Of a DNA stretch of 64,000 nt, positions 16,897 to 41,488 are shown piece by piece. Numbering within the stretch: position 1 is the stretch's first letter; every line of letters begins with the position of its first letter. The position numbers were made by a program, and so were the translations under genes. The notes under the pieces were generated by a model that was given only the letters and a program-made list of their open reading frames with translations, was not told the DNA's origin and searched no databases. Origin of the DNA: Nitrospirota bacterium (GTDB lineage Bacteria > Nitrospirota > UBA9217); assembly GCA_963790205.1 (NCBI GenBank), contig CAWBNQ010000001.1:640001-704000 (forward strand). The letters run 5' to 3'.

Positions 16897-17014
16897 ATGG
16901 AGACTGACTACGGAATCGAACCGAAGACAAGCCATGCACGGCTGTCCAGCGGGGTTGAAGCCCGCTGCCGGCGCCAGCCGACAGAGCCAGTCCTGACAAT
17001 GAAAACTCTTCGTT

Positions 17015-28144: not shown

Positions 28145-30043
28145 TCAGAAGTTATACCGTAGTCCCCCCTCGAACCACCGTTTCGGGTTCTTGTATCTCT
28201 CATCTTCATACTGATCGCCGTTGAACAGATTATGCACATCGGCAAAAGCTTCGAGCGAGGCATCTTTATGCTGCAATATCTTTTTTATCATATGCAGATC
28301 GAAAACAAAGGAACCATAGCTTGCATTCAAGCCCCAGGAGGAGTCTATGTTCCAGTCGATATAGCGGCCGTTCAACAAAGCCTTGAAAGATTGCTGATCA
28401 TCGTAGTGGAGCCCGAGGTCGTAGATACGCGTCGGCTGGAATTTCAATCTCGTGTCAGTATTCAGGTCTTGAGCATCTACATATTCTGTACCCGCGGTCA
28501 GGAAGGTATTGTACACGGGCGCTGTCTTTACTTCGAAATCGACGCCCCTGCGTCTTTGCCTGTTTCCATTTACAAACATTTGCTTAGCAGGATCAACCGG
28601 AGAAGTTTCGATAGTAAAGCCATCACGGATCTCATTCCAGAACACCGAGACCTTCGTCCAGAGGTATTTCAATGAAGCAGTCTCCACCCCTGCCTGATAC
28701 GAATAGACCTTCTCCATTTTCAGATCCGGATTAGGAGTATAAAAAATATTATCTGTATAAGCAAACCCGAGCGGCGGATTGGTGAAGCCCTTTGCAGTGT
28801 AGAGTCTCACTATGGTGCTGCTCCCGACATTGTAAGCAAGCCCCAGGCTTGGGCTGGTGATTGCGTTGTTTGAGTTTGTGCGGTCGTATCGCACGCCGGG
28901 GGTAATGGAGAGCCTGTTCAACAATATGGTATCGTTCGCGTAAACGGCCCATTTCCTTAATTCCCTTTCACCTCCGTCAACCTGCGTCGAATCGAATGTT
29001 CTAGCATCCGCATCCACACCGAAAATAATCGTCTGTGATTCATTCCTCCAGGTTAGTTTGGCGCTCGATCCGTAACTTTTGTCAGTAGTATGTTCGCCTT
29101 GAACTATTACGCCGGAAAAATCGTCTTCAAATACCTGGCGGAGTGATCGAATTGACACGTTCAGGTCCAGATTCTGAGTAAGGCTCGAATTCAGGGCAAC
29201 CGTGGCATGCTGGATGCTCTGAGCATCATCCTCGGATATATCGGTCGACGGGAAAAACGTGGCAAATCCGACTCCCCTGCGGCTCTTTTCATACCCCAAG
29301 GCAAAGAGCACGTTCGTTTTGTCAGTGAGATCATAGGTCAGCTTCGTATAGACATTGTCTCCGTTGACGTGAAAATTCGGCAGCAAGCCATCCGTCTGCA
29401 GCCTCCCCGCGGCCAGATAATAACCGAACCCGTCCTGCTTGCCCCGCGCCTCTGCGCGAAAATCCTCCGTGCTCCTGCTGCCGTAAGACGCGGAGAGCAT
29501 TCCGCCCTGATTGTTTGCCGTGCCCGCCTTGGTGATGATGTTCACCACACCCCCAAGGGCCGAACCCCAGGCTGAAGAAGCGGGGCCTTTGATGATCTCC
29601 AGCTTCTCGATGTTCTGCACCGGGATCAACGCCACATCGACGCTGTTGTCGGCGAGATCGTTTAATACGACCCCGTCGATGATAACGGTCACCTGTTGGG
29701 CATCCGAACCCTGAATAAAAGCATTCGCCCGGGTGACGGGGTCTCCAAGCATAAACATCTGGACCCCGGTGACCGTGTTCAGGACCTCAGCGAGCGTATG
29801 AGCGTTCATGAGCTCGATATCCGAGGCCGTAACGACCGTGATGTTCTCGGCAGTCTTGGAAACAGGCTTCGGGCTCCTGGTGGGTGTTTCCACCACGAGC
29901 TCTTCCTCCTTGAAATACATCAGGAGGAAATTTTTTTCTTCATCGGATTGAGCGAAAACGGGAGAAGGGTTCGAAAGGAGATGGAGCGCAAATAGGGAAA
30001 GAGAAAGAATGGCAATTGTTATGAGGTCCCGTTTATTCGGCAT
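28145..30043 (-). CDS. TonB-dependent outer membrane receptor
   Basis: Signal peptide, plug motif IEKLEIIKGPASSAWGSALGGVVNIITK, NPDLKME, C-terminal RYNF. Confidence 0.93.
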   Translation of the reverse strand: MPNKRDLITIAILSLSLFALHLLSNPSPVFAQSDEEKNFLLMYFKEEELVVETPTRSPKPVSKTAENITVVTASDIELMNAHTLAEVLNTVTGVQMFMLGDPVTRANAFIQGSDAQQVTVIIDGVVLNDLADNSVDVALIPVQNIEKLEIIKGPASSAWGSALGGVVNIITKAGTANNQGGMLSASYGSRSTEDFRAEARGKQDGFGYYLAAGRLQTDGLLPNFHVNGDNVYTKLTYDLTDKTNVLFALGYEKSRRGVGFATFFPSTDISEDDAQSIQHATVALNSSLTQNLDLNVSIRSLRQVFEDDFSGVIVQGEHTTDKSYGSSAKLTWRNESQTIIFGVDADARTFDSTQVDGGERELRKWAVYANDTILLNRLSITPGVRYDRTNSNNAITSPSLGLAYNVGSSTIVRLYTAKGFTNPPLGFAYTDNIFYTPNPDLKMEKVYSYQAGVETASLKYLWTKVSVFWNEIRDGFTIETSPVDPAKQMFVNGNRQRRRGVDFEVKTAPVYNTFLTAGTEYVDAQDLNTDTRLKFQPTRIYDLGLHYDDQQSFKALLNGRYIDWNIDSSWGLNASYGSFVFDLHMIKKILQHKDASLEAFADVHNLFNGDQYEDERYKNPKRWFEGGLRYNF

Positions 30044-30347
30044 GCCTGCACCATTTACCTCAGGTTAGACTGGTGGGTCTTGAGTTTGCACTGCGCATAT
30101 GCCGCTTAGAATAGCATACTATTCACAATTTGTGCACTAAAAAATGCAACGACGAAAATCAGTAAAGCGGACGATTCTTTTGCATAAAAAGTCTCCCGGA
30201 ACGTCATTTCGATTACGCGTGACGCCCCGCCCGGGACCGGTTACGCCTCCGCTCTTTTCGGGGTTGACTTGAGCGCCGCGTTTGTGATAATTTATGCCTG
30301 TTGCCCGGCAACGATCCGAATATAATATTTTGTCAGGAGGCGTACCC

Positions 30348-30473
30348 ATGGCTACCAAGATGAATTTCATTCTCAAAGTTCAGGATGCGAAACTTGCCGA
30401 CGTCCAGAAAGCGCTCAAAGACGCGAACATCAACGTCGTGAGCATCATGGAAATCCATAAGGAAGAGGCGTAA
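30348..30473 (+). CDS. Small 41-aa protein MATKMNFILKVQDAKLADVQKALKDANINVVSIMEIHKEEA
   Basis: AGGAGG RBS, TATAAT upstream, host-like codons; below the ORF-track length cutoff. Confidence 0.65.
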   Translation: MATKMNFILKVQDAKLADVQKALKDANINVVSIMEIHKEEA

Positions 30474-30635
30474 GCGGCCGAACACCGCCGGTCTTCGGCA
30501 GGCGTGGACGTCCCGCCCGCCTGCGCCCTGATAAAAAGGCGCAAGACCGGACCCCGCCTGTTTGCCGCGGAGAACGGGACGCCCGCGGCAGCCGCTCATC
30601 CCGCAATCTGCTATACTTAAATCACCAGTAAGGTT

Positions 30636-30899
30636 ATGAAAATTACGCTCGCGGATCTTGAAAATATCGCAAAGACCCTTTCGATCAGGGTGTCATATGA
30701 CGACCTGAAGATGTCGAAGGGCGGCTCATGCCGGGTCATGGAGACCCGCAGAATCATCATCAACAAGCGCCTCCAAAACAGCGAGAAAATAAATCTTCTG
30801 GCGCGGGAGCTTGGCGGTTTCGACCTGGGCGGCCTCGATATTCCCGAGAACATCCGAAAAAAAATAGAACAGGAATCGCGAGAGCGGCCCGAGGCATAG
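30636..30899 (+). CDS. Conserved-looking hypothetical protein
   Basis: 87-aa ORF with KGGSCRV..IIINKRL..LAREL pattern. Confidence 0.6.
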   Translation: MKITLADLENIAKTLSIRVSYDDLKMSKGGSCRVMETRRIIINKRLQNSEKINLLARELGGFDLGGLDIPENIRKKIEQESRERPEA

Positions 30900-30970
30900 A
30901 CTGTTGCACATCCGTGATAATGCCCTGCACATGCCGGTTTTAATTAATATAGAGGGCGGGAGACCTGTTA

Positions 30971-31489
30971 ATGAAGAAGATCGTACTGCTGATGAGCACT
31001 GCGCTGTTTTTCCAGGGCTGTTCCTATGCCATCTCGCCCGATCTGGCCAAACGTGCCGACAAAACCATTCCCTTCGAAACGCTTGAGCGCGACCCCGAAC
31101 CGTACAAGGGCAAGCTTGTCATCCTCGGCGGCGTTATCGTCCAGACAACCACGGTAAAACAAGGGACCTTGATCGAGGTCCTGCAGAAGCCCCTGGACTA
31201 CTGGGGCAAGCCCAGGCGCACGGACACGTCCGGCGGCAAGTTCCTTGTCCACTATTCCGCCTACCTCGACCCCCTCGTATATGCGCCGGAGCGGGAGGTC
31301 ACCGTTGCCGCGGAGGTTGAAGGCACCCGCAGTAAGGCCCTCGGCGATATCGAGTACAGCTATCCTGTGGTCCTTTCAAAGGAACTCAAGCTCTGGCCGC
31401 GGGAACGTCCGCCCCAGTACAGACCGGACTATATGGACCCGCTCCTCTATGATCCGAACACCCCGGGCAATTCCACGCGGCAATATTGA
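30971..31489 (+). CDS. Slp family outer membrane lipoprotein
   Basis: Lipobox FQGC, GKLVILGG, IEVLQKPLD, GGKF, YLDP, YSYPVV..LKLW. Confidence 0.88.
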   Translation: MKKIVLLMSTALFFQGCSYAISPDLAKRADKTIPFETLERDPEPYKGKLVILGGVIVQTTTVKQGTLIEVLQKPLDYWGKPRRTDTSGGKFLVHYSAYLDPLVYAPEREVTVAAEVEGTRSKALGDIEYSYPVVLSKELKLWPRERPPQYRPDYMDPLLYDPNTPGNSTRQY

Positions 31490-31553
31490 TGGAGAAGCAG
31501 GCCGCGGGGAACATGAGAACATGCTATGATTGAGGCATTCACAAAAGCTTTTC

Positions 31554-31638
31554 AACGTTGGAGACGCAGAGGGCGCAGAGAAAAACCTTAAGATTTTGAC
31601 CGGGTTCTCTCCGCGTCCTCAGCGATCTCTGCGGTAAA
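31554..31638. repeat. REP-like palindromic element
   Basis: gagacgcagagggcgcagagaa ... ttctctccgcgtcctcagcgatctctgcggt. Confidence 0.6.
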
Positions 31639-31669
31639 TCCGAATTTTTACGACTTCATCACGATTGTC

Positions 31670-32176
31670 ATGAGAAAAAAATGTACCATGGTCCCGCTCG
31701 TCGTCCTCGCCGCGCTGCTCTTGGCCGGCGGCTGCGCGCCGCCCTTTTCCCAGGCGGCGCTCGACCAGGTCGACCGGACCGTTACGTTCACTGAACTGCG
31801 AAGCGACCCCGACCGCTACAAGGGGAAATGGGTCATGCTTGCCGGCGTAATCGTCTACGCCAGGAACACGCGGGAAGGGACCTTCATCGAGGTGCTCCAA
31901 AGGCCGACGGACCGCCGCGGCCGGCCGCTTGACACGGACGAAACCGAAGGGCGGTTCATCATCTCTTCCGCCAAGTTCCTTGATGCCGCCGTGTATCATG
32001 GCGGCAGGCTGATCACCGTCATCGGCGAGGTCGCGGGACTGAAAGTCCAGCCGCTCGGCGAGATAGAGTACCGGTACCCCGTGGTGACCCCCAAAGAGCT
32101 TCATCTGTGGGAGCCGAGCGCGGGTCCGCGGTTCTCCTTCGGCGTGGTGGGCGTCGGTGTTTTCCACGGGCGCTAG
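31670..32176 (+). CDS. Slp family outer membrane lipoprotein (tandem paralogue)
   Basis: Lipobox AGGC, IEVLQRP, EGRF, FLDAAVY, YRYPVV..LHLW. Confidence 0.88.
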   Translation: MRKKCTMVPLVVLAALLLAGGCAPPFSQAALDQVDRTVTFTELRSDPDRYKGKWVMLAGVIVYARNTREGTFIEVLQRPTDRRGRPLDTDETEGRFIISSAKFLDAAVYHGGRLITVIGEVAGLKVQPLGEIEYRYPVVTPKELHLWEPSAGPRFSFGVVGVGVFHGR

Positions 32177-32379
32177 ATGCTTGTTGTTTACGGCTGAGGC
32201 TTCGAGGGATTGAGAGAAACGCCGGATCCCGAGCGCCGAATATCAAGTAAATCCCGACTTCATCATACGGTCCCTTGCGCACATGCGACTAAGGGAAGGT
32301 CGGGGGCTTTGCGTTCTATTAAATAAATTGAAATTTTTTTCTCACGGCATCCGTGTAATCACTGGAACGGGGGACTGCT

Positions 32380-34209
32380 ATGAAGAAAGGTTCTCAACTC
32401 TTCTTTTATGTCCTGATCTTTCTGGCGTTTTTAAGCATGTTCCGGCTGTTTTCCGAAACGCCGAGCGAAGAAATACCCTATAGTACGTTCAAGAGCCTCC
32501 TGGCGGAGAAAAAAGTGCAGGACCTCGTCATCTCGCGCGACACCATCAAGGGAACGCGCGTGCCCGAAAAGGACAAGGGTGAGAAGGGGAAGCCCTTCAC
32601 GGTCGTGCGCGTCGAAGATCCCGACCTCGTAAAGGCCCTCGCAGCAAGCGCCATCACCTACCGCGGCGAGCTTTCGGACAACTGGCTCAGGGACTTTCTG
32701 CTCACCTGGATCCTTCCCCTCGCCGTGCTAATGCTCATCTGGAGCTTTGTCTTCCGGCGGATGGGGGCAGGCGGTCCGGGCGGAGAGACGTTCATGAGCT
32801 TCGGCAAGTCGCGCGCCAAGATCTACGGCGAGAGCGACGTCAAGGTGACCTTCAGCGATGTGGCCGGCGTGGACGAGGCCAAGGAGGAGCTCATGGAGAT
32901 CATCGAGTTCCTCCGTCACCCTGAAAAATTCACCAAGCTCGGCGGCCGCATTCCCAAAGGGGTGCTGCTGGTCGGTCCCCCGGGCACGGGCAAGACGCTC
33001 CTGGCCAAGGCCGTGGCCGGCGAGGCCAAGGTGCCCTTCTTTTCCATGAGCGGCTCGGAGTTCGTCGAGATGTTCGTGGGCGTGGGCGCCTCGCGCGTGC
33101 GCGACCTGTTCCAGCAGGCCGTGCAGAAGGCGCCCTGCATCATCTTCATCGACGAGCTCGACGCCCTGGGCCGGGCGCGGGGCGCGGGCATCGCGGGCGC
33201 ACACGAGGAACGGGAGCAGACCCTGAACCAGCTCCTTGCCGAGATGGACGGCTTCGATCCGCGGAAGGGCGTGATCATCATGGCCGCCACCAACCGGCCC
33301 GAGATCCTCGACCAGGCCCTGCTCCGCCCCGGCCGCTTCGACCGGCACGTGCTGGTGGACCGGCCGAACATCAAGGACCGCGAGGACATCCTGAAGATCC
33401 ATATCAGGGGCGTCAAGCTCTCCAAGGACGTGGACATTGCCGTGCTCGCGGCGCGCACGCCCGGTTTCGTGGGCGCGGACCTCGCCAACATGGTGAATGA
33501 AGCCGCGCTTCTTGCGGCGCGAAAGGGCAAGACCGAGGTGGACATGACGGACTTCGAAGCAGCCATCGACCGTCTCGTGGCCGGCCTCGAGAAAAAACGA
33601 AGGGTCATGAACAAGAAAGAGAAGGAGATCGTGGCCTATCACGAGTGCGGCCACACCATCGTGGCCGAGCTCCTGCCCACTACCGATCCGGTGCACCGCG
33701 TGTCCATCATACAGCGCGGTATTACGGCGCTCGGGTATACGCTCCAGCTCCCGACCGAGGACCGCTACCTCATGACCAAGACCGAGCTCCAGGACAAGCT
33801 CTGCGTCATGCTCGGCGGCCGCGTGGCGGAGGAGACGATCTTTCACGAGGTCTCGACCGGAGCGCAGAACGACCTCCAGCGGGCCGCTGACATTGCGCGC
33901 GGCATGGTCAAGGAATACGGCATGACCGAAAAGTTCGGGCCCCTTACCTTCGAAAAGGAACGGCGGCCCCTGTTCCTCGATCTCGGACTGCCGCCGGGTG
34001 CCAAGGAATACAGCGAGGACACTGCCCGGGAGATCGACCAGGAAGTAAAGCGCTTGATCGACGAGGCCTACCGAAAAGTCAAGGAAACGCTTGCCGCGAA
34101 CCAAGACAACCTGAAAAAGCTCGCCGCGGTCCTGCTCGAAAAAGAGACCATCGAGGGCGATGAGATCAGGAAGATCCTGGGGCTGCCGGAGAAGAAGGGG
34201 CAGGGGTGA
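32380..34209 (+). CDS. ftsH: ATP-dependent zinc metalloprotease FtsH
   Basis: [43 protein letters not shown]. Confidence 0.97.
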
Positions 34210-34614
34210 TCGCGCTGGCTCCTGATACAGGATGCACGATGCAAAAAATATAAAAAGCGCCTGCATGGTTGAGAGCGCTTTTATTTATTACAACCATTAA
34301 CTGAACCGGCCAGTTACGGGGGGCTTCCAAGAAAAAGAAGATCACTCCCCGACGATCTTGACCAGCACCCGCTTCTTTCTCCTGCCTCCCGTTAAATGAC
34401 ATTCGAGTGTATTATATTGGAATAAACAGAGGAATTAAAGAGGTTTTTTGCTTTTAAGACAGATATTAAGTGTAGGACATATGTAAATTTTCGTATTTTG
34501 CGGACTTCAATCAATAAAGAAAAGATGCATCGCATAAAGACAGGCAGATAACCTCAGCTACAACATGATACCTCCGCACTCCAGACATTTTGCGAACTTT
34601 CAGTTGTATATGAA

Positions 34615-34672
34615 AATAATGGCGTGAGGGGCGCGGCTTTTAGCGACCCTCTCGACGCGTCTCGTTTACGTG
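34615..34672. other. Degenerate attC-like hairpin
   Basis: gcgtgaggggcgc-ggctttta-gcgaccctctcgacgc imperfect palindrome; core sites eroded. Confidence 0.35.
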
Positions 34673-34852
34673 CGGTTTCTGCTCTTCCGAGGCTTACTCC
34701 ATTTCAGACACTACGTTATATATGGGTAGAGCATGAGGTTAGATTCTCCCATTAAAGTATAGGGAAAATTATCTTCAAGACTACCCAAAATAGAAACCTC
34801 CTGCTAAGAATAAGTTTATAGCGAAACTAAATTCTTGTGGCAGGAGGTTCCT

Positions 34853-36160
34853 ATGAATTATGTAGATGATATCAGACTTGAGCAGTTTCTTCAACTGAAG
34901 AAAGAAATTCGCGGTTCGGAAAAGCATTTGATCGTCGGCATTGACGCGGCCAAGGAGAAGCACAACGCTTTTTTCGGTACGGCACGCGGAAAAACGCTGG
35001 TTAAGAATCTGGTCTTTGACAACACGCTTGAAGGCTTTCAAAAGCTGCTCGCCTATGTCGAGCGAATCAAAGTTCAATATAGCCTGACCACGGTCGTTTT
35101 CGGAATCGAGCCGACGGCGAACTATCACAAGCCCCTGGCGGAGCATCTGATCAAGTGCGGGCACATGGTCGTTCTCGTGGGAGGCGTCGCGGTCAAGAAC
35201 AACCGGCAGCTTCTGGACGGCCGCTGGGACAAACATGACGTCAAAGACGCGGCAAACGTCGCAGATCTTATCGCCCAGGGGAAGTGCCTGTTTTACGAAT
35301 ACCCCCTGATGACACTGCGGAACGTGCGCGTCCTGATCGCACTCAAACGGCGTTTAAAGAGAAGGGAACACGGCATGAGCGTATGTGTTCGCAATCACCT
35401 CATCGCGCAGTATTTCCCCGAGTTGGACCAACACTACGGCCCATCGGAAACCCTGACGGTGGTAAGGGAATGTCTTGACCCCTCGGAGATCGCCGGCATG
35501 GAATACGATGCCTTCTGCCGCACCGTCGCGCCGGGCAAAATGACGCTGGCGAAGGGCCGCAGGGTGGGAATGATCTGGAGGGCCGCGGTTGATTCCATCG
35601 GCTGCACTATGGGAGAAGCGGCGTCTTTCGAAGCTCAAGTCATGGTGGACGGCCTGAAGCAGATCAGGCAAACCATCAAGTCGGTGGAGGAAAAACTCGA
35701 AGATGCCTGCATGGAATTTCCGGAGTACACCTACTTGCTGAGCATTCCGGGGTTCGGACCGGATGTTTCCTCAAAGGTGCTTGGGGCCATTGGAAATCCA
35801 CGCCGCTTTACGAGCGCCAAGCAGGTATTGAAAATGGCAGGCCTCGACCTGTGCGCGGATCGAAGTGGCAAGAAGTCCACCAGCGCGATACCGGTCATCT
35901 CCAAGCAAGGCAAGGCCGATCTCCGCTACGGACTGTATCAGGCGGCATTTATCGCCTCGCTTAAGAACAAGGACTTTATCACCTACTTTACGAACAAGCT
36001 CAAGGGCCGGGCAAAGGAGAAAGGCATCGTCACAAAGATGCGCGTCAAGCTGGCCGCGAAGCTCCTGGTTATCGCTTGGACGCTGATGAAAAAAAAAGAA
36101 TGCTTTGATCCGAAATATCTCAAACAGGAGGATGAGGCCGCGAATAAAAAAGCGGCATGA
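34853..36160 (+). CDS. IS110 family transposase/recombinase
   Basis: DEDD tetrad VGID / IEPT / KHDVKDA; SIPGFG and RSGK C-terminal motifs; AGGAGG RBS. Confidence 0.93.
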   Translation: MNYVDDIRLEQFLQLKKEIRGSEKHLIVGIDAAKEKHNAFFGTARGKTLVKNLVFDNTLEGFQKLLAYVERIKVQYSLTTVVFGIEPTANYHKPLAEHLIKCGHMVVLVGGVAVKNNRQLLDGRWDKHDVKDAANVADLIAQGKCLFYEYPLMTLRNVRVLIALKRRLKRREHGMSVCVRNHLIAQYFPELDQHYGPSETLTVVRECLDPSEIAGMEYDAFCRTVAPGKMTLAKGRRVGMIWRAAVDSIGCTMGEAASFEAQVMVDGLKQIRQTIKSVEEKLEDACMEFPEYTYLLSIPGFGPDVSSKVLGAIGNPRRFTSAKQVLKMAGLDLCADRSGKKSTSAIPVISKQGKADLRYGLYQAAFIASLKNKDFITYFTNKLKGRAKEKGIVTKMRVKLAAKLLVIAWTLMKKKECFDPKYLKQEDEAANKKAA

Positions 36161-36164
36161 TCCG

Positions 36165-36440
36165 TGAAACGTAAAAAACCAATTTCGGCGAGAGAGCCCG
36201 GGACACTACGTTGAGGCTACGACCTCGGTGGGGACAATACAGGACCTCTCGTTTGAACGATAGAATCTGGATAAGGTATTCTGGGCGGCCAAACTGAAAG
36301 CGCGGCATGCCGAATAGGCTGTAACGATTAGAGTTATCGTTCGTCTGGATGCGAGAGACTCGCCGATCAAAGCGATGCTGGCAGGAATGCCGGGAGGAAA
36401 GCTGCGTCTTCAATCGACGCAGAAAACCATCTGATTGAAA
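36165..36440 (+). ncRNA. Putative bridge/seek RNA of the IS110 element (ends approximate)
   Basis: Loop segment GACACTACGTT (36202-36212) is identical to the left junction 34707-34717; enclosed by cgagag/ctctcg stem. Confidence 0.7.
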
Positions 36441-36698
36441 ATTATGAAAACTAAACTGTCACTTGACGGGAGCGTTATAGTATGTCCTCAAGATTCTGCT
36501 ATCACAGCAGACCTTAGCAGGCACACCTTTTCCGACTAAGCAACACGTCACCACTCACCGTTAACAAAGATTACTTCACCGAAGCATTACCCTAAATGTC
36601 GAAGCGTCTCGACCATCCTCCTGCCGCTACGGGCTTCTTGAACACTGGATTGGGTACGATGTGAAAATGTCGTCTCAATCCTTAAAGGTTAGGCCTCG

Positions 36699-37130
36699 CT
36701 ACCTTCCGGCGATAGTCCATGCTGCAAACACGAGCAGTGCTCCAAATCCAACAACAAAGCCACCGACTTGGATTGTGTCGGCGACCTTTCGCCGCCAATT
36801 GAGTTTCCAACGCCACTCCTTGGCAGACTTTTTCTCATAGTCGAGACCCCAGGAGATGTAGTACTGAGCCCAGAGTCGCATATGAAATATTCCTGCGATC
36901 GTCGAGATCGCTAGCGCAGCCCATCCTGCTAAGAGTGCAGCCTTCATAGCTGCAGAGATCGGACTACTGCCAAGGATATCCTTGGTGAACGTAACGGAAA
37001 AGACGAATGCGCCGGCCGCAATTGACATCAAATGCTTGATGTACTCGATTCTGTAGTTGTTCCCTAGGCCAATATCCAGATGGGCTTCTGAGAGCGTTCG
37101 ATTATCTGTTTCATGTGTTTTCTCGTTCAT
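36699..37130 (-). CDS. Small membrane protein (about 3 TM), hypothetical
   Basis: Three hydrophobic segments; GCCTAAC shortly after the stop codon. Confidence 0.7.
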   Translation of the reverse strand: MNEKTHETDNRTLSEAHLDIGLGNNYRIEYIKHLMSIAAGAFVFSVTFTKDILGSSPISAAMKAALLAGWAALAISTIAGIFHMRLWAQYYISWGLDYEKKSAKEWRWKLNWRRKVADTIQVGGFVVGFGALLVFAAWTIAGR

Positions 37131-37170
37131 CAGAGACTCTCCTTTAAATGTGCTGGCGGCACAGATGTGA

Positions 37171-37221
37171 GGCAACACGCGCGTGAACCGCAAGCATTTC
37201 GCGGCGACGCGCAGGTTGGGC
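37171..37221 (-). other. Degenerate attC-like site
   Basis: Minus strand GCCCAAC-ct-gcgcgt-cg-ccgc...gcgg-ttc-acgcgc-gt-GTT. Confidence 0.5.
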
Positions 37222-37254
37222 CATATTGGCCGTCTATTGACGGCGCTTGTCCTC

Positions 37255-38172
37255 TTATGGAAGCTTATTCTTTAGCAGCTGCGAGCGGATATGTTTCATT
37301 ATATGAGCCTGATGCGAAATGATATTGTCATTAGAACGCTTGAACACGTCACCAAACTTAGTCCCTTGGTTTTTCTGAAGACGGGCCTCGTCTGAAAACA
37401 AACATTCTTTAGAAGAACTAACGTAATTGCACAACCATGTCAATTTTGAAGACAACGGAGTTTCTGCTGCAATCATCTTATCGCTCGCCGTTTCCTGCAA
37501 GATGTTATCAATTTCATCAGCTAAATAAAAGTCACCAGCGATTGGATCGTAACCGAGATAATCAACAAAATATAGACCATCGGTATCAACACATACCATG
37601 TGAGCTATGCGATTTTTTATGAGTATAGGTATCTTTGGAATAGGGTCTGAAAGTAAAATTTTAATTAATTCGTCGTCAATTACTGCCCGGGGGTACAAAG
37701 CGGCCCTGGATTCAATGCGGTAAGCTTTGACTAAAGCTTCTCCTAAGACCATATCTCTCTTGTGAAATAAACGGCCACAAGAGATGCCGCCTCGCGTACG
37801 AACTCCTAGGCTTAGAAGACCCCTTTGTAACCAAAAAACCGATTGAAGACAACGTAATATTGGGACGACTCTACTATTCAAAGAATACTCGTTATCTCTT
37901 TCACGTTCAGGGAAAGACATCGTTATTGCATCAGAAAGCAATGTAATCTTGTCATACGCACCGAATGGCTTATCAAACTGTATTTGAACTTCTTTGCCAG
38001 TTCGCACATGGGGCAGTGAAAAAAATACTTCTTTTTTACTTCCTACTAAAGCGGAAAACAAACTATATATTGCTTGGGCATAATTTTCAGATTGATCTGT
38101 TGCAAGCATCTGGTCAGATATTCCAAGAACATCGATAAATGCTACATACCTATTTTTGTATTGCAGGTGCAT
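37255..38172 (-). CDS. Divergent class III nucleotidyl-cyclase-like protein
   Basis: YVAFIDVLG and LLSDAI (two metal-binding Asp), RGGISCG, LGEALVKAYRIE, YPRAVID. Confidence 0.6.
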   Translation of the reverse strand: MHLQYKNRYVAFIDVLGISDQMLATDQSENYAQAIYSLFSALVGSKKEVFFSLPHVRTGKEVQIQFDKPFGAYDKITLLSDAITMSFPERERDNEYSLNSRVVPILRCLQSVFWLQRGLLSLGVRTRGGISCGRLFHKRDMVLGEALVKAYRIESRAALYPRAVIDDELIKILLSDPIPKIPILIKNRIAHMVCVDTDGLYFVDYLGYDPIAGDFYLADEIDNILQETASDKMIAAETPLSSKLTWLCNYVSSSKECLFSDEARLQKNQGTKFGDVFKRSNDNIISHQAHIMKHIRSQLLKNKLP

Positions 38173-38241
38173 TCAATCACTTTTTAGACAATCAAATTAA
38201 ATTAAGAAATCTTTCGTAGCGTTGGAAGTTTCTATCAGATG

Positions 38242-38871
38242 TTAGGTCGGTTTTTTATCAATACCGTGCTTTTCATATACCTTCGATTTTTCCGGCTGTG
38301 CCCAGTGGGTATGAGGAAACGTCGGGATTTCCCGATCGAATTCTTTCAACAATTCTTTTCTTGCATCAGCCCAAAGCGCAAAGATTTTATCTCTCACAAT
38401 TTTTCCATCATCAGTTGTGATTTGCTTGTTATATCCCAAATCACTTATCAAACGGAGTATATCCTTGACCGGTTCAAATGGATAAAGACCGATTTTGTTA
38501 TCAGTTTCACCCAAGTTCATGAAGACACCCCGAACCTCTTCAATAGCAGCACTGAGACTACAAAGAGTTTCACTATACTGTTCCTTAGTAGGGTACTCGA
38601 TATGAGTATACTGACTTGCTGTCTGGACCGCCTTCACTAAGGTGCTCCACAAAAGCCGCAATTGCTGCATATAGCTTGAGCGTCGTTGCAAACAATAGCC
38701 AAGCCAAGCTGCGGGAATAGCAATTATAAATGGAATCATGTCCTTATACGTTGAATAGATCACAGAGTTAGTTGTTTTGTCATATAATCGAAGCGATATG
38801 CCCAAAGCAACTGCCGTAAGGTAAATAACGCTGGCTACGAAGAACCACCTGAATAATTGTCTTTTTGTCAT
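38242..38871 (-). CDS. Hypothetical protein with two N-terminal TM helices
   Basis: 209-aa ORF; stop codon lies inside ACCTAAC. Confidence 0.7.
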   Translation of the reverse strand: MTKRQLFRWFFVASVIYLTAVALGISLRLYDKTTNSVIYSTYKDMIPFIIAIPAAWLGYCLQRRSSYMQQLRLLWSTLVKAVQTASQYTHIEYPTKEQYSETLCSLSAAIEEVRGVFMNLGETDNKIGLYPFEPVKDILRLISDLGYNKQITTDDGKIVRDKIFALWADARKELLKEFDREIPTFPHTHWAQPEKSKVYEKHGIDKKPT

Positions 38872-39238
38872 ATTCTATTTTTTACGCTCGAATTAAAGGC
38901 ACAGCTGGGCCGCCCCAGTTGCCACGCTTTCATATTTTCGAAAGAACATCTTATTGACTATTATGAACCAGCCATCTATAGGGATATAGAGCTATCTACC
39001 GGTATATACTTTTCGAGGTTTGCTTATTTCACGAACCAGATCCCGGAGGAACCGATCCGCTACCATATCGTACAATGCCACGAATATATGCCGAATCCCG
39101 TGGCATGTCAATCGCCCGAGATGGATATAGAGGGGTAGCAGCCAATCAATTCCACTTGTAGTATTGGAATTTCGCGGACCCGTAACTAAAACAAGTGCAG
39201 AAAGAATTCTTCGAGATGTAGAAAAGGTTTATTCTGTA

Positions 39239-39823
39239 TTAATGCTTCTTTGTAGAATGCTCTTGCCGGTTTATAATTTCCTCAGAGCTTATAAACATAT
39301 AACCTTGATTCAAAACTTTGTTATATTCCATTACGATGTTGGTCGCATTTGTAAACCAGTAATATTTATTCTTCAATTTATTCGGTTTGTCCGGCCTGCC
39401 ATATTTATGAGCTGTGACCTTCTTGAGTTTATTGAAATTGTCATATCCTGCAAATTTTATATCCACATCGGATAGTTTATTTTGCCAAAATCCATATTGA
39501 ATGCTTGTAAGTGTTACCCCTCCGACTTCAAGTGGATCGTCTTTTCTAGAATAAAACTTGACTCCTCCGTAGCTGGGATCTGTTCTGGGATGGATCATCA
39601 CGTCTTTTACCAAAGAAAAATCAGTACCCCAACTAATGCCTCTGAACCCCTCCGCCTCTTCGGATATGCCTTTCGTTGAGGATGCAAATGATAACGCAAT
39701 CACTATGATAAAAATCGCTACCCGTTTTATAACAACCTCGCTTTTATTACGAATGGTAAAAGCAATAGTCTTGGCCAGATTAATCTCCGGAATAACTATC
39801 CAAATCGGGCGAAACAGGGCCAC
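39239..39823 (-). CDS. Hypothetical exported protein
   Basis: Signal-like segment followed by EGFRGISWG; start uncertain. Confidence 0.6.
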   Translation of the reverse strand: MALFRPIWIVIPEINLAKTIAFTIRNKSEVVIKRVAIFIIVIALSFASSTKGISEEAEGFRGISWGTDFSLVKDVMIHPRTDPSYGGVKFYSRKDDPLEVGGVTLTSIQYGFWQNKLSDVDIKFAGYDNFNKLKKVTAHKYGRPDKPNKLKNKYYWFTNATNIVMEYNKVLNQGYMFISSEEIINRQEHSTKKH

Positions 39824-39849
39824 TTATCTACCGAATATGCAGTTGAGTC

Positions 39850-40401
39850 TCATCTGGGAACGCATCTCTCTGACAAGCGGCGTAAATCAGCAGAGTAACA
39901 AGCTGGAAACAATACACATAGTTGTTCAAACGTCACAGCATTAAGACTTCCTGCAATTGCACGAGCACGATAAGCTGCAGGAAAGGTACCCCCAGGAAGC
40001 GCACGAGTCAATTGAAGCGCCTCAAGGTAATTTCCAGATTGAGGGACTTGAGCAGCAAGGCCGTATAGGCCTTGCGCGTAAATAGAAAACTCAACGGCGA
40101 CCCCTTCCTCAAGGAAGTTCGTGTTGCTTACAGTCGGATTTAATAAGTGAATCGTCTCGTGAGCCATTTCGTACACGACGGTAGGCCAATAGATTTTGCT
40201 AGTCGGGCTGAGCTCAGCAAACGCACCATCGAGCGTAGGTGTATTGCGTAGATGAGGTCCGTTGTCGTGAAAAACGGGTTGATAGATTGTTTTCGTTCGG
40301 TCACGTTCGCCGAGAAGTTTTTCGGCCAGTGTCAGCAGTTCTTGCTGTAAAGCCCAAAGGCCTGGATAGTCATGTTCCGGAATCGAGGTGGGTAGTTGCA
40401 T
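39850..40401 (-). CDS. HExxH metallopeptidase-like protein
   Basis: EMAHETIHLL ... LEEGVA. Confidence 0.6.
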   Translation of the reverse strand: MQLPTSIPEHDYPGLWALQQELLTLAEKLLGERDRTKTIYQPVFHDNGPHLRNTPTLDGAFAELSPTSKIYWPTVVYEMAHETIHLLNPTVSNTNFLEEGVAVEFSIYAQGLYGLAAQVPQSGNYLEALQLTRALPGGTFPAAYRARAIAGSLNAVTFEQLCVLFPACYSADLRRLSERCVPR

Positions 40402-40444
40402 ATTGAGCTATCGTTATCGCTTTTCTGAGTTCAGGTTGGGGCAA

Positions 40445-41488
40445 CTAAATATTTTCCCCGTAGTATTGCTTGTAAACATCTTTAAAGATGAGCGGGAAAT
40501 TACTCGTGAATTCTCTAAAACCTTCGCTATTATCCTGGTACTCATAGTGTCTCAGATGTTTAAAGTCAAAGGGAATGTCAGATATATCCTGAGTAAGGAG
40601 GATTGCAGGTTTTCCGATGGCATGAACAATTCCTACTTCGTACAGGACATTCGGATTTTTTGCTGTCAAATCAGCAACAATAATTGCGCATTGGTTTATT
40701 TTAGTCCATATATCCTCAATGATAATAGGTCCGTTCAAATTATCCGCACGTAGGCATTGAAATCCGAGTGCTTCAACATTTTCTCTTATCAACTCTTTGT
40801 AGACATGATCGGACCATTCCTTTTTAAAAGGCATCAATACGAAGCAAAGTCTCGGATCTATTTGTTCAATCTTCGTTCTAAAAATTGGATGCGGTTTATT
40901 TGAGGATGAATTATCTTCGGCTGAATATCCTAACGGATTTGCTACGGGTCTTACTTTTGGTGATGATTCTCTTTGGTGATTAATTATCAACTGCTCGATG
41001 TCTCGATATTTTATATATTCGTCGAAAACCTCATTTCCGTCTAGGGCAAATTTGGCAATGCCGCCGTAATTAGTGAGTGAATATGAAGTAGATGTGAAAC
41101 TGCCAAGTCCACTAATGAATCGCAGGATAACCTCAACTTCATATTTGTCAATGCCAGACTGTGTTGATATCTCTTCTGATGATATTTCTCTCAGCTCCGG
41201 ATTTTTAAATAGGAAGTCTTTTATGAGCAGAATGACCTTATGTGTTTTTTCTATTAAATCTGTTTCCGGATCTAAATGCCATATACCTAGAAGGGTTAAT
41301 CTGTCTTCTCCTTCTAGCAATCGTCTGTCAATCTGATAGGGATTAAAGTCGTCAGGTATTTTTCCGAGTAATTCAATCTTTAAACTTCTATGGCCTGCCT
41401 TTTCTCGTGTCTTAAATTTTGTATATATCGCTCCAAGCCACGCTTTAGCGTCATCGGTAATTTCTATTTTAGGAAAATTATAGGGCAT
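40445..41488 (-). CDS. Protein with a C-terminal nucleoside 2-deoxyribosyltransferase/TIR-like domain
   Basis: CFVLMPF, RAD, VADLTAKNPNVLYEVGIVHAIGKP, IPFDF. Confidence 0.7.
   Translation of the reverse strand: MPYNFPKIEITDDAKAWLGAIYTKFKTREKAGHRSLKIELLGKIPDDFNPYQIDRRLLEGEDRLTLLGIWHLDPETDLIEKTHKVILLIKDFLFKNPELREISSEEISTQSGIDKYEVEVILRFISGLGSFTSTSYSLTNYGGIAKFALDGNEVFDEYIKYRDIEQLIINHQRESSPKVRPVANPLGYSAEDNSSSNKPHPIFRTKIEQIDPRLCFVLMPFKKEWSDHVYKELIRENVEALGFQCLRADNLNGPIIIEDIWTKINQCAIIVADLTAKNPNVLYEVGIVHAIGKPAILLTQDISDIPFDFKHLRHYEYQDNSEGFREFTSNFPLIFKDVYKQYYGENI

Follow-up and report, generated by a model that had tools for sequence, protein, structure and literature searches.

An IS110-group insertion sequence from a Nitrospirota bacterium with a predicted IS621-like bridge RNA behind its recombinase gene

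The described systems with which the element reported here can best be compared are IS621 and ISCro4 (IS622), the only structurally solved relatives of its recombinase, to which the similarity is weak (E values of 1e-16 and 9e-15). According to the IS621 literature, the left donor guide of that element pairs with the first core base only, a handshake signal has been described (PMC11208158), and a model of the mechanism has been put forward (PMC11208160, PMC11208158, PMC13626964); further work on IS621, ISCro4 and IS110 includes Perry et al. (10.1101/2025.05.14.653916) and 10.64898/2026.03.19.712850. The bridge RNA was reported to lie on the left in the vast majority of IS110 elements (PMC11208160). 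IS110-type elements with a downstream non-coding region have been noted as well (PMC11187229), and it is among these that the present element fits. A second set for comparison is provided by the IS1111 seekRNA elements ISEc11, ISKpn4, ISPst6 and ISPa11, for which an extended non-coding sequence downstream of the transposase, short stretches matching each of the two strands of the target and natural re-targeting among relatives were described (PMC11187229), features that are also seen here.

Here, we analyzed a stretch of 64,000 nucleotides from a Nitrospirota bacterium (the window). Positions 34717-36485, counted with one core copy, are an intact insertion sequence of the IS110 group with a repeated GT core on both sides (Table 1). 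On the basis of the comparisons described below, we consider it highly probable that the 3' end of this element encodes a bridge RNA with two loops, by which the recombinase would be directed both to the target and to the element's own ends. The original prediction had proposed such a bispecific, bridge-type RNA spelling out the insertion site; this main reading stands on the covariation of the target guides, and all the strings quoted in its favor were present at their coordinates. The target loop had been located in that prediction, but its TATA-type junction, right guide, donor loop and RNA end had all been misassigned.

The recombinase gene encodes an intact IS110-family protein, as had been proposed, which is borne out by its domains, by its score against NCBIfam NF033542 (IS110 RNA-guided transposases; 150.6 bits, cut-off 140) and by the catalytic set D31, E86, D129, D132 and S338, identified by alignment to IS621, each residue of which was kept in 64 of 64 aligned relatives. 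The closest plasmid matches of the protein were only ∼28-30% identical. A lone copy of the hairpin predicted over its ribosome-binding site was observed elsewhere in this genome (G000 C3:438253-438308), with GT and then a sequence resembling a right target after it; two metagenome contigs end in the same way.

Table 1. Coordinates of the element, its flanks and the features assigned to them in the window
Feature	Positions	Strand	Basis or remark
Left target, host DNA, AGACACTAC	34706..34714	+	Fits left target guide 8/9 plus one G.T wobble
Left GT core copy	34715..34716	+	Empty sites carry a single GT
Left non-coding end, 136 bases; starts with right donor TATAT, doubling as predicted -10 box (TATATA) of the promoter at the circle junction	34717..34852	+	
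Internal GT followed by TAGATT; right-donor look-alike, 23-base scar endpoint	34738..34745	+	
Predicted hairpin over the recombinase ribosome-binding site, -24.7 kcal/mol	34795..34849	+	Putative role
IS110-family recombinase, 435 aa	34853..36160	+	Open reading frame; both IS110 Pfam domains
Predicted bridge RNA, ∼180 bases	36185..36366	+	Outer stem 36185-36192 with 36359-36366 around target loop and donor loop
Left target guide, 9 bases plus core GT	36201..36211	+	Covariation with left flank
GAGG/CCTC hairpin between both target guides	36213..36226	+	Pairing at each of 4 positions in 77/80 distinct right ends
Right target guide, TGGGG plus core complement AC	36229..36235	+	Reads CCTCA; covariation with right flank
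Target-loop handshake position	36236..36240	+	A36236 opposite T36483
Left donor guide ATAAGGTAT, then TC at core positions	36271..36281	+	Core not paired in this clade
Right donor guide GTAAC	36321..36325	+	Complementary to GT-TAT, one wobble
Donor-loop handshake base G, opposite the target's last base C34714	36326..36326	+	24/33 Watson-Crick
Predicted -35 box TTGACG	36463..36468	+	17 bases before core end
Left donor, the element's right end, TTATAGTAT	36475..36483	+	Shared ends of copies and relatives
Right GT core copy, the element's end	36484..36485	+	Boundary comparison across copies and relatives
Right target, host DNA, CCTCA	36486..36490	+	Fits right guide 4/5 plus one wobble

Four full copies could be identified in the genome, three of them identical inside and the fourth (C5:354321) 90.6% identical in DNA. 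All four start with GT-TATATATGGG and finish with TAGTAT-GT, GTATGT being the same in each apart from variation upstream of it, and the right ends of relatives read TAG[T/G]ATGT and diverge beyond. Empty sites consisting of the left target, a single GT and CCCC were found at C3:426771, C6:-59576, C8:-2795 and C14:-212254. The core could be settled as GT because these empty sites and the relatives fit only the GT pair 34715-16/36484-85; a TATA-type core, as in the earlier boundary model, and a core at the internal GT (34738-34739) were both ruled out on the same grounds. A subterminal repeat, CTCCC/GGGAG, was also considered and dropped, being only five bases long and missing from the fourth copy. 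In this element the right end (323 bases) is longer than the left (136 bases), and the same order was found in all 84 of 84 complete loci, with medians of 322 and 137 bases, respectively.

The surroundings of the element showed several further features. Just to its left, at 34622-34659, there is a short repeat that also occurs at C14:122130 in this genome and in many metagenome contigs, and which we take to resemble an integron attC site. To its right, a run of unrelated low-GC genes occupies the minus strand (36699-41488); four of the five genes scanned there had no Pfam match, one gave a weak nucleoside deoxyribosyltransferase-like match below the cut-off, and no repeat family marks this array. 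Elsewhere in the window, a selenocysteine tRNA gene is located at 16899-16993 on the minus strand.

For comparison, 151 related loci (51-98% protein identity) were collected in two scans and, together with the four genome copies, gave 155 parsed loci, among which the left junction could be parsed in 111, the right junction in 116, the target loop in 124 and the donor loop in 117. One locus (L128), whose loop was misread by the pattern, was left out of guide counts. Stems were counted on 80 distinct right ends, joint changes were followed on a tree of 64 proteins, and the significance of guide-flank agreement was measured by 5000 permutations in which kinship was ignored. One of the related genomes (G041, L006-L032) contained 24 left ends with several guide variants; many of its copies appear to be embedded in a repeated palindromic element of greater length. 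In the genome studied here, part of the flanking sequence outside the guides is also shared.

The region behind the recombinase gene likely encodes a two-loop, IS621-like bridge RNA, as predicted from a consensus fold of 17 sequences that has two internal loops and compensatory changes in 12 of 39 pairs. This fold was confirmed on the 80 distinct right ends, in which G-C/A-U switches occur in the stem of the donor loop as well as in the outer stem. Folding had been suggested earlier as a check, and its outcome was divided: the single sequence folded no better than shuffles (z -0.79 and -0.67) and was not used as evidence, and the consensus of relatives gave the two loops. A search of positions 30000-41000 against Rfam returned no match up to E 1. 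The GAGG/CCTC hairpin that had been recognized from this sequence is borne out by almost all of the distinct right ends (Table 1). The cgagag/ctctcg stem said to enclose the loop failed, its outer pair being broken (C-A) in 20 of 80 relatives; ctctcg pairs with CGAGAG at 36352-36357 instead, and at the same base a G-C/A-U switch divides the relatives (55 and 20 of 80). The RNA itself is predicted to end near 36366 rather than at 36440. The present copy has a C.A mismatch in the closing stem of the target loop, where 75 of 80 relatives have C-G: the base A36244, shared by the three identical copies, is G in those 75, and one pair of the closing stem is broken. Either these three copies spread nonetheless, or they were moved in trans.

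The evidence that carries the main reading is the agreement between guides and flanks across homologs, which had been named as a test of the original prediction and which held for each of the two target guides. The left guide agreed with the left flank at 6.74 of 9 positions compared with 3.86 after permutation (26 distinct guides, 51 pairs), and the right guide with the right flank at 4.22 of 6 compared with 1.97 (23 guides, 90 pairs); with kinship ignored, 0 of 5000 permutations did as well in either case. The guide signal spanned positions -8 to -1 and +1 to +4, was weaker at +5 (0.49 vs 0.26; 38 of 5000) and was absent at +6. At position -9 of the left guide the strict match was not above chance (0.29 vs 0.26), with 16 matches and 8 wobbles out of 49. 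The natural variety of guides was considerable, with 20 different four-base right guides and 65 guide combinations, and these natural changes support the view that the recombinase would be programmable. The sites of the three identical copies scored 13, 13.5 and 13 of 14, and none of the 424390 GT positions in the assembly scored 13; for the fourth copy, agreement with its own left guide was limited to 6 of 9 positions.

The length of the left guide was nine bases in 87 of 123 loci and eleven, with a likely two-base bulge, in 28. For the 11-base guides, the best fit was obtained when the two bases following the third were looped out (7.0 of 9 vs 5.35; 17 pairs), for example at L013, L025, L043, L062, L087 and L088. 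Eight of the 123 left guides have AT rather than GT at the core positions, including those of L077, L083, L096, L099 and L106, among which some are apparently shifted by one base against the target.

An exact 11-base match between 36202-36212 and 34707-34717 had been part of the original prediction, and it does exceed chance: a match of at least 11 bases appeared in 5 of 20000 resamples of 36161-36440, and the 11-mer occurs only five times in the 4.3-Mb genome, always in element copies or their left junctions. Its eleventh base, T36212, is not part of the guide. Among 123 parsed loci, the base after the core in the left guide was T in 86, G in 24 and A in 13, whereas the first base of the element is T throughout; this last match is thus incidental.

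The right guide had to be moved. The match originally proposed for it, 'GGACAATAC' (36232-36240 against 36480-36487), gives way to a true right guide at 36229-36235. GTATGT (36480-36485) is shared by the four genome copies and thus belongs not to the flank but to the element, of which it forms the right end together with the core, so that the GGACAATAC match runs across the right junction. The first base by which this match exceeds the guide coincides with the target-loop handshake position, where A stands opposite T in 58 of 62 cases and is invariant. The fourth base after the AC of the right guide was C in 17 of 36 elements ending in GGAT and in 0 of 27 ending in GTAT, which hints at a longer pairing of 36236-36240 with the right end of the element and at some pairing across the junction. 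The tree does not support it: this base changes 10 times, and five close GGAT-ended relatives are without compensation. These observations bear on the layout originally drawn, in which GTATGTCC was counted as part of the right target and 36391-36430 as the donor loop, with CGGGAG and CCAT matching the element's ends. All strings of that layout are present. However, besides GTATGT belonging to the element, CGGGAG fits the element end at 6 of 6 positions in only 1 of 37 close relatives and CCAT is likewise kept in 1 of 37, the sole case being this element itself in both instances. A six-base match of the CGGGAG kind arose in 3531 of 5000 resamples, i.e. at chance level, and the 36391-36430 region is among the least conserved (0.57 vs 0.75-0.90 for the scaffold). 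We therefore regard this layout as scarcely tenable.

The donor loop was assigned to 36271-36327. In its left guide, only one base (-3) varies, and in 66 of 67 distinct cases it agreed with the element end (G in 37, T in 28 and A in 1). Guide and element end changed jointly at all four changes on the 64-protein tree, although for some of these joint changes an exchange of the entire 3' end, rather than independent mutation, may be the cause. Positions 1-5 of the right donor guide were paired or wobbled in 31-32 of 32 cases; this guide is nearly invariant and shows no covariation. The donor-loop handshake base was complementary to the last base of the target in 24 of 33 cases compared with 12.0 expected (0 of 5000 permutations, kinship ignored). 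The core positions of the left donor guide read TC in 57 of 117 loci, and in this clade neither core base is paired; in distant relatives, the guide pairs with the first of the two core bases but not with the second (G in 39 of 67).

An alternative in the manner of seekRNA would be that only a short, processed target-loop RNA (∼36190-36250) matters, the ends being read mostly by the protein or by the target loop itself and the donor loop being secondary. The 3' RNAs of the IS1111 type are reported to be processed to forms of 70-100 bases (PMC11187229), a target-loop-only RNA was reported to make up 90.4% of the bound RNA of CazIS110-1 (10.1101/2025.10.25.684509), and in the present clade neither core base is matched by the donor guide, and the right end of the element could pair with the bases that follow the right target guide. 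Against this, the donor loop is well preserved, compensatory changes are present in its stems, its guide tracks the element end and its handshake base tracks the target, and complete transposition of CazIS110-1 was still reported to require the full RNA (10.1101/2025.10.25.684509). This alternative thus appears rather improbable, and we favor a two-loop RNA in which both loops would take part.

By every test that a sequence permits, the element appears to work like IS621. It shares with IS621 and ISCro4 a recombinase of the DEDD plus serine type, two loops in the order left target, right target, left donor and right donor, a two-base core read by guides, handshake bases and a second core base that is unpaired by the left donor guide. 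The scaffold word GAGAGCCCG, which precedes the left guide, was counted 177 times in supplementary file 4 of PMC11208160. In contrast with IS621 and ISCro4, the RNA lies behind the gene instead of before it and the protein has 435 residues rather than 328 and 341; compared with IS621, the core is GT instead of CT (GT works for IS621 in published work) and the left guides have nine bases instead of seven. Neither could the element be placed in the IS1111 group, because it is without a long subterminal repeat, has 435 residues as against 330-350 and shows the IS110 guide order, with the bottom-strand guide first, whereas the top-strand match is 5' in IS1111 (PMC11187229). A subterminal inverted repeat of 11-13 bases of the IS1111 type was absent, the longest exact match being five bases and the best window 8 of 11, with none at the 7/3 offsets. 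No description of this branch was found in the titles and opening abstract lines of the IS110 literature, and bioRxiv supplements may list such elements; in those supplements of PMC11208160 that could be searched, the junction word did not occur. The view that this is an uncharacterized variant of a known system, with a 3' bridge RNA, a GT core, longer left guides and recurrent scars, is well supported.

The ends of the element also point to a promoter that would exist only on a circle. TTGACR was found 17 bases before the core end in 69 of 71 distinct right ends, and TATATA after the core in 72 of 73 distinct left ends, the junction -10 box lacking the usual last T in all 73. With this spacing, the closing of a circle at GT would restore a promoter, as has been described for the junction of IS621 (PMC11208160) and as is predicted here from sequence. 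No plus-strand site was found when the linear element was scanned for promoters. A circle junction was found neither in four metagenome assemblies containing relatives (85% identity) nor in the fetched loci, and the single match to the joined right-end/left-end pattern in 64 genomes proved to be an ordinary insertion whose flank starts with TA. Among sequencing runs, no RNA run containing the sequence was listed, and the best share in a DNA run was 0.21; neither these runs nor the four assemblies bear on expression.

Taking IS621 as a guide, the cycle might proceed as follows. A circle joined at GT would form and bring TTGACG and TATATA 17 bases apart, which would switch on a transcript that passes through the recombinase gene into the 3' end; the RNA of ∼180 bases could be cut from this transcript, or the transcript could be used directly. 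The target loop would open a site of ∼9+2+5 bases and the donor loop would open the circle junction. After top-strand exchange, the handshake bases would pair with the swapped strands and so favor insertion. Occasionally, the recombinase probably uses an internal GT of the left end in place of the true one, in which case all but 23 bases would be removed.

This last step was suggested by short left-end remnants. A 24-base left-end pattern, to which remnants of less than 24 bases are invisible, matched 83 places in 22 of 64 genomes of this bacterial family; 76 distinct places were examined, the others being six full elements already in the set of relatives and one duplicate. Forty-seven of the 76 left ends continue for at least 100 bases, three stop at a contig end and 10 stop between positions 31 and 76, whereas 16, in nine genomes, stop after 23-27 bases. 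Half of the short ones (8 of 16, in six genomes) read exactly left target, GT, 21 bases, GT and right target, where the right target is CCCC five times, AGGTG twice and ACTCC once. In this genome, the remnant at C3:423325 adjoins an empty twin (C3:426771), and a shorter remnant (C1:-108419) breaks at another internal GT. Remnants lying between target halves and ending at an internal GT were observed at C3:423325, C6:46362 and C1:-108419 in this genome and at L155, L168, L182, L184, L185, L192 and L218; they are 23 bases long, and 11 in one case. The exact pattern was absent from viral contigs and, among 401 genomes of the phylum, was found only in the same five genomes of this family. The internal site is GT in 32 of 40 close relatives and GG in 15 of 33 distant ones.

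The simplest reading, and a likely one given this arrangement, is that the element was excised between the internal GT and the right core and that the chromosome was rejoined. Host slippage or repair between short repeats, or the ends of another element, could also leave such remnants: several other truncated left ends stop within a run of CCCC (positions 31-44), at which micro-homology to a right target of CCCC could come into play, and the search pattern itself is blind to anything shorter than its 24 bases. However, in eight remnants from six genomes the break falls exactly at the internal GT and is followed by a right target of the family, with nothing but GT shared between the break points; the shorter remnant breaks at the other internal GT, and the twin of the C3 site is without the 23 bases. 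An origin by slippage, repair or another element is thus unlikely in our view, and excision by the recombinase remains the preferred reading. Partial or half-match excision of IS110 elements has been published (10.64898/2026.08.14.744561, 10.64898/2026.08.31.748434 and, for ISPpu9, PMC12288879), likewise with recurring internal points, one matched donor arm and several circle types per element. In the accessible parts of the literature on IS110 excision and footprints, no chromosomal scar of this sort was found.

On a circle formed from the internal GT, the last base of the -10 box would be T (25 of 40), which is never the case at the normal junction. The mean consensus match of that box was not higher, at 3.4 compared with 4.0, and no purpose is therefore shown for the internal-GT circle. 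Only tentatively, and with more doubt than confidence, could a wider picture be drawn in which a branch of IS110 recombinases of the long type, frequent among Nitrospirota and related groups, would combine a wider site (9+2+5) than that of IS621 and a 3' bridge RNA with a second built-in exit. This exit would use the conserved left-end look-alike 23 bases inside, give a circle with a stronger junction promoter (TTGACR-17-TA[G/T]ATT) and leave a 23-base scar that blocks re-use of the site.

Bridge recombinases are under development for genome writing, and nearly all bench work has been carried out on the short IS621/ISCro4 type. The present branch offers a natural GT core, left guides that are two bases longer in both loops and an RNA behind the gene, and the 65 natural guide combinations, together with their sites, are available as a series. 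Pairing along the whole of the wider guide, should it occur, could raise specificity. In addition, a rejoined target that still holds a remnant implies double-strand loss of the element in nature, at internal cores, which bears on the dispute over whether such elements are cut out or copied out.
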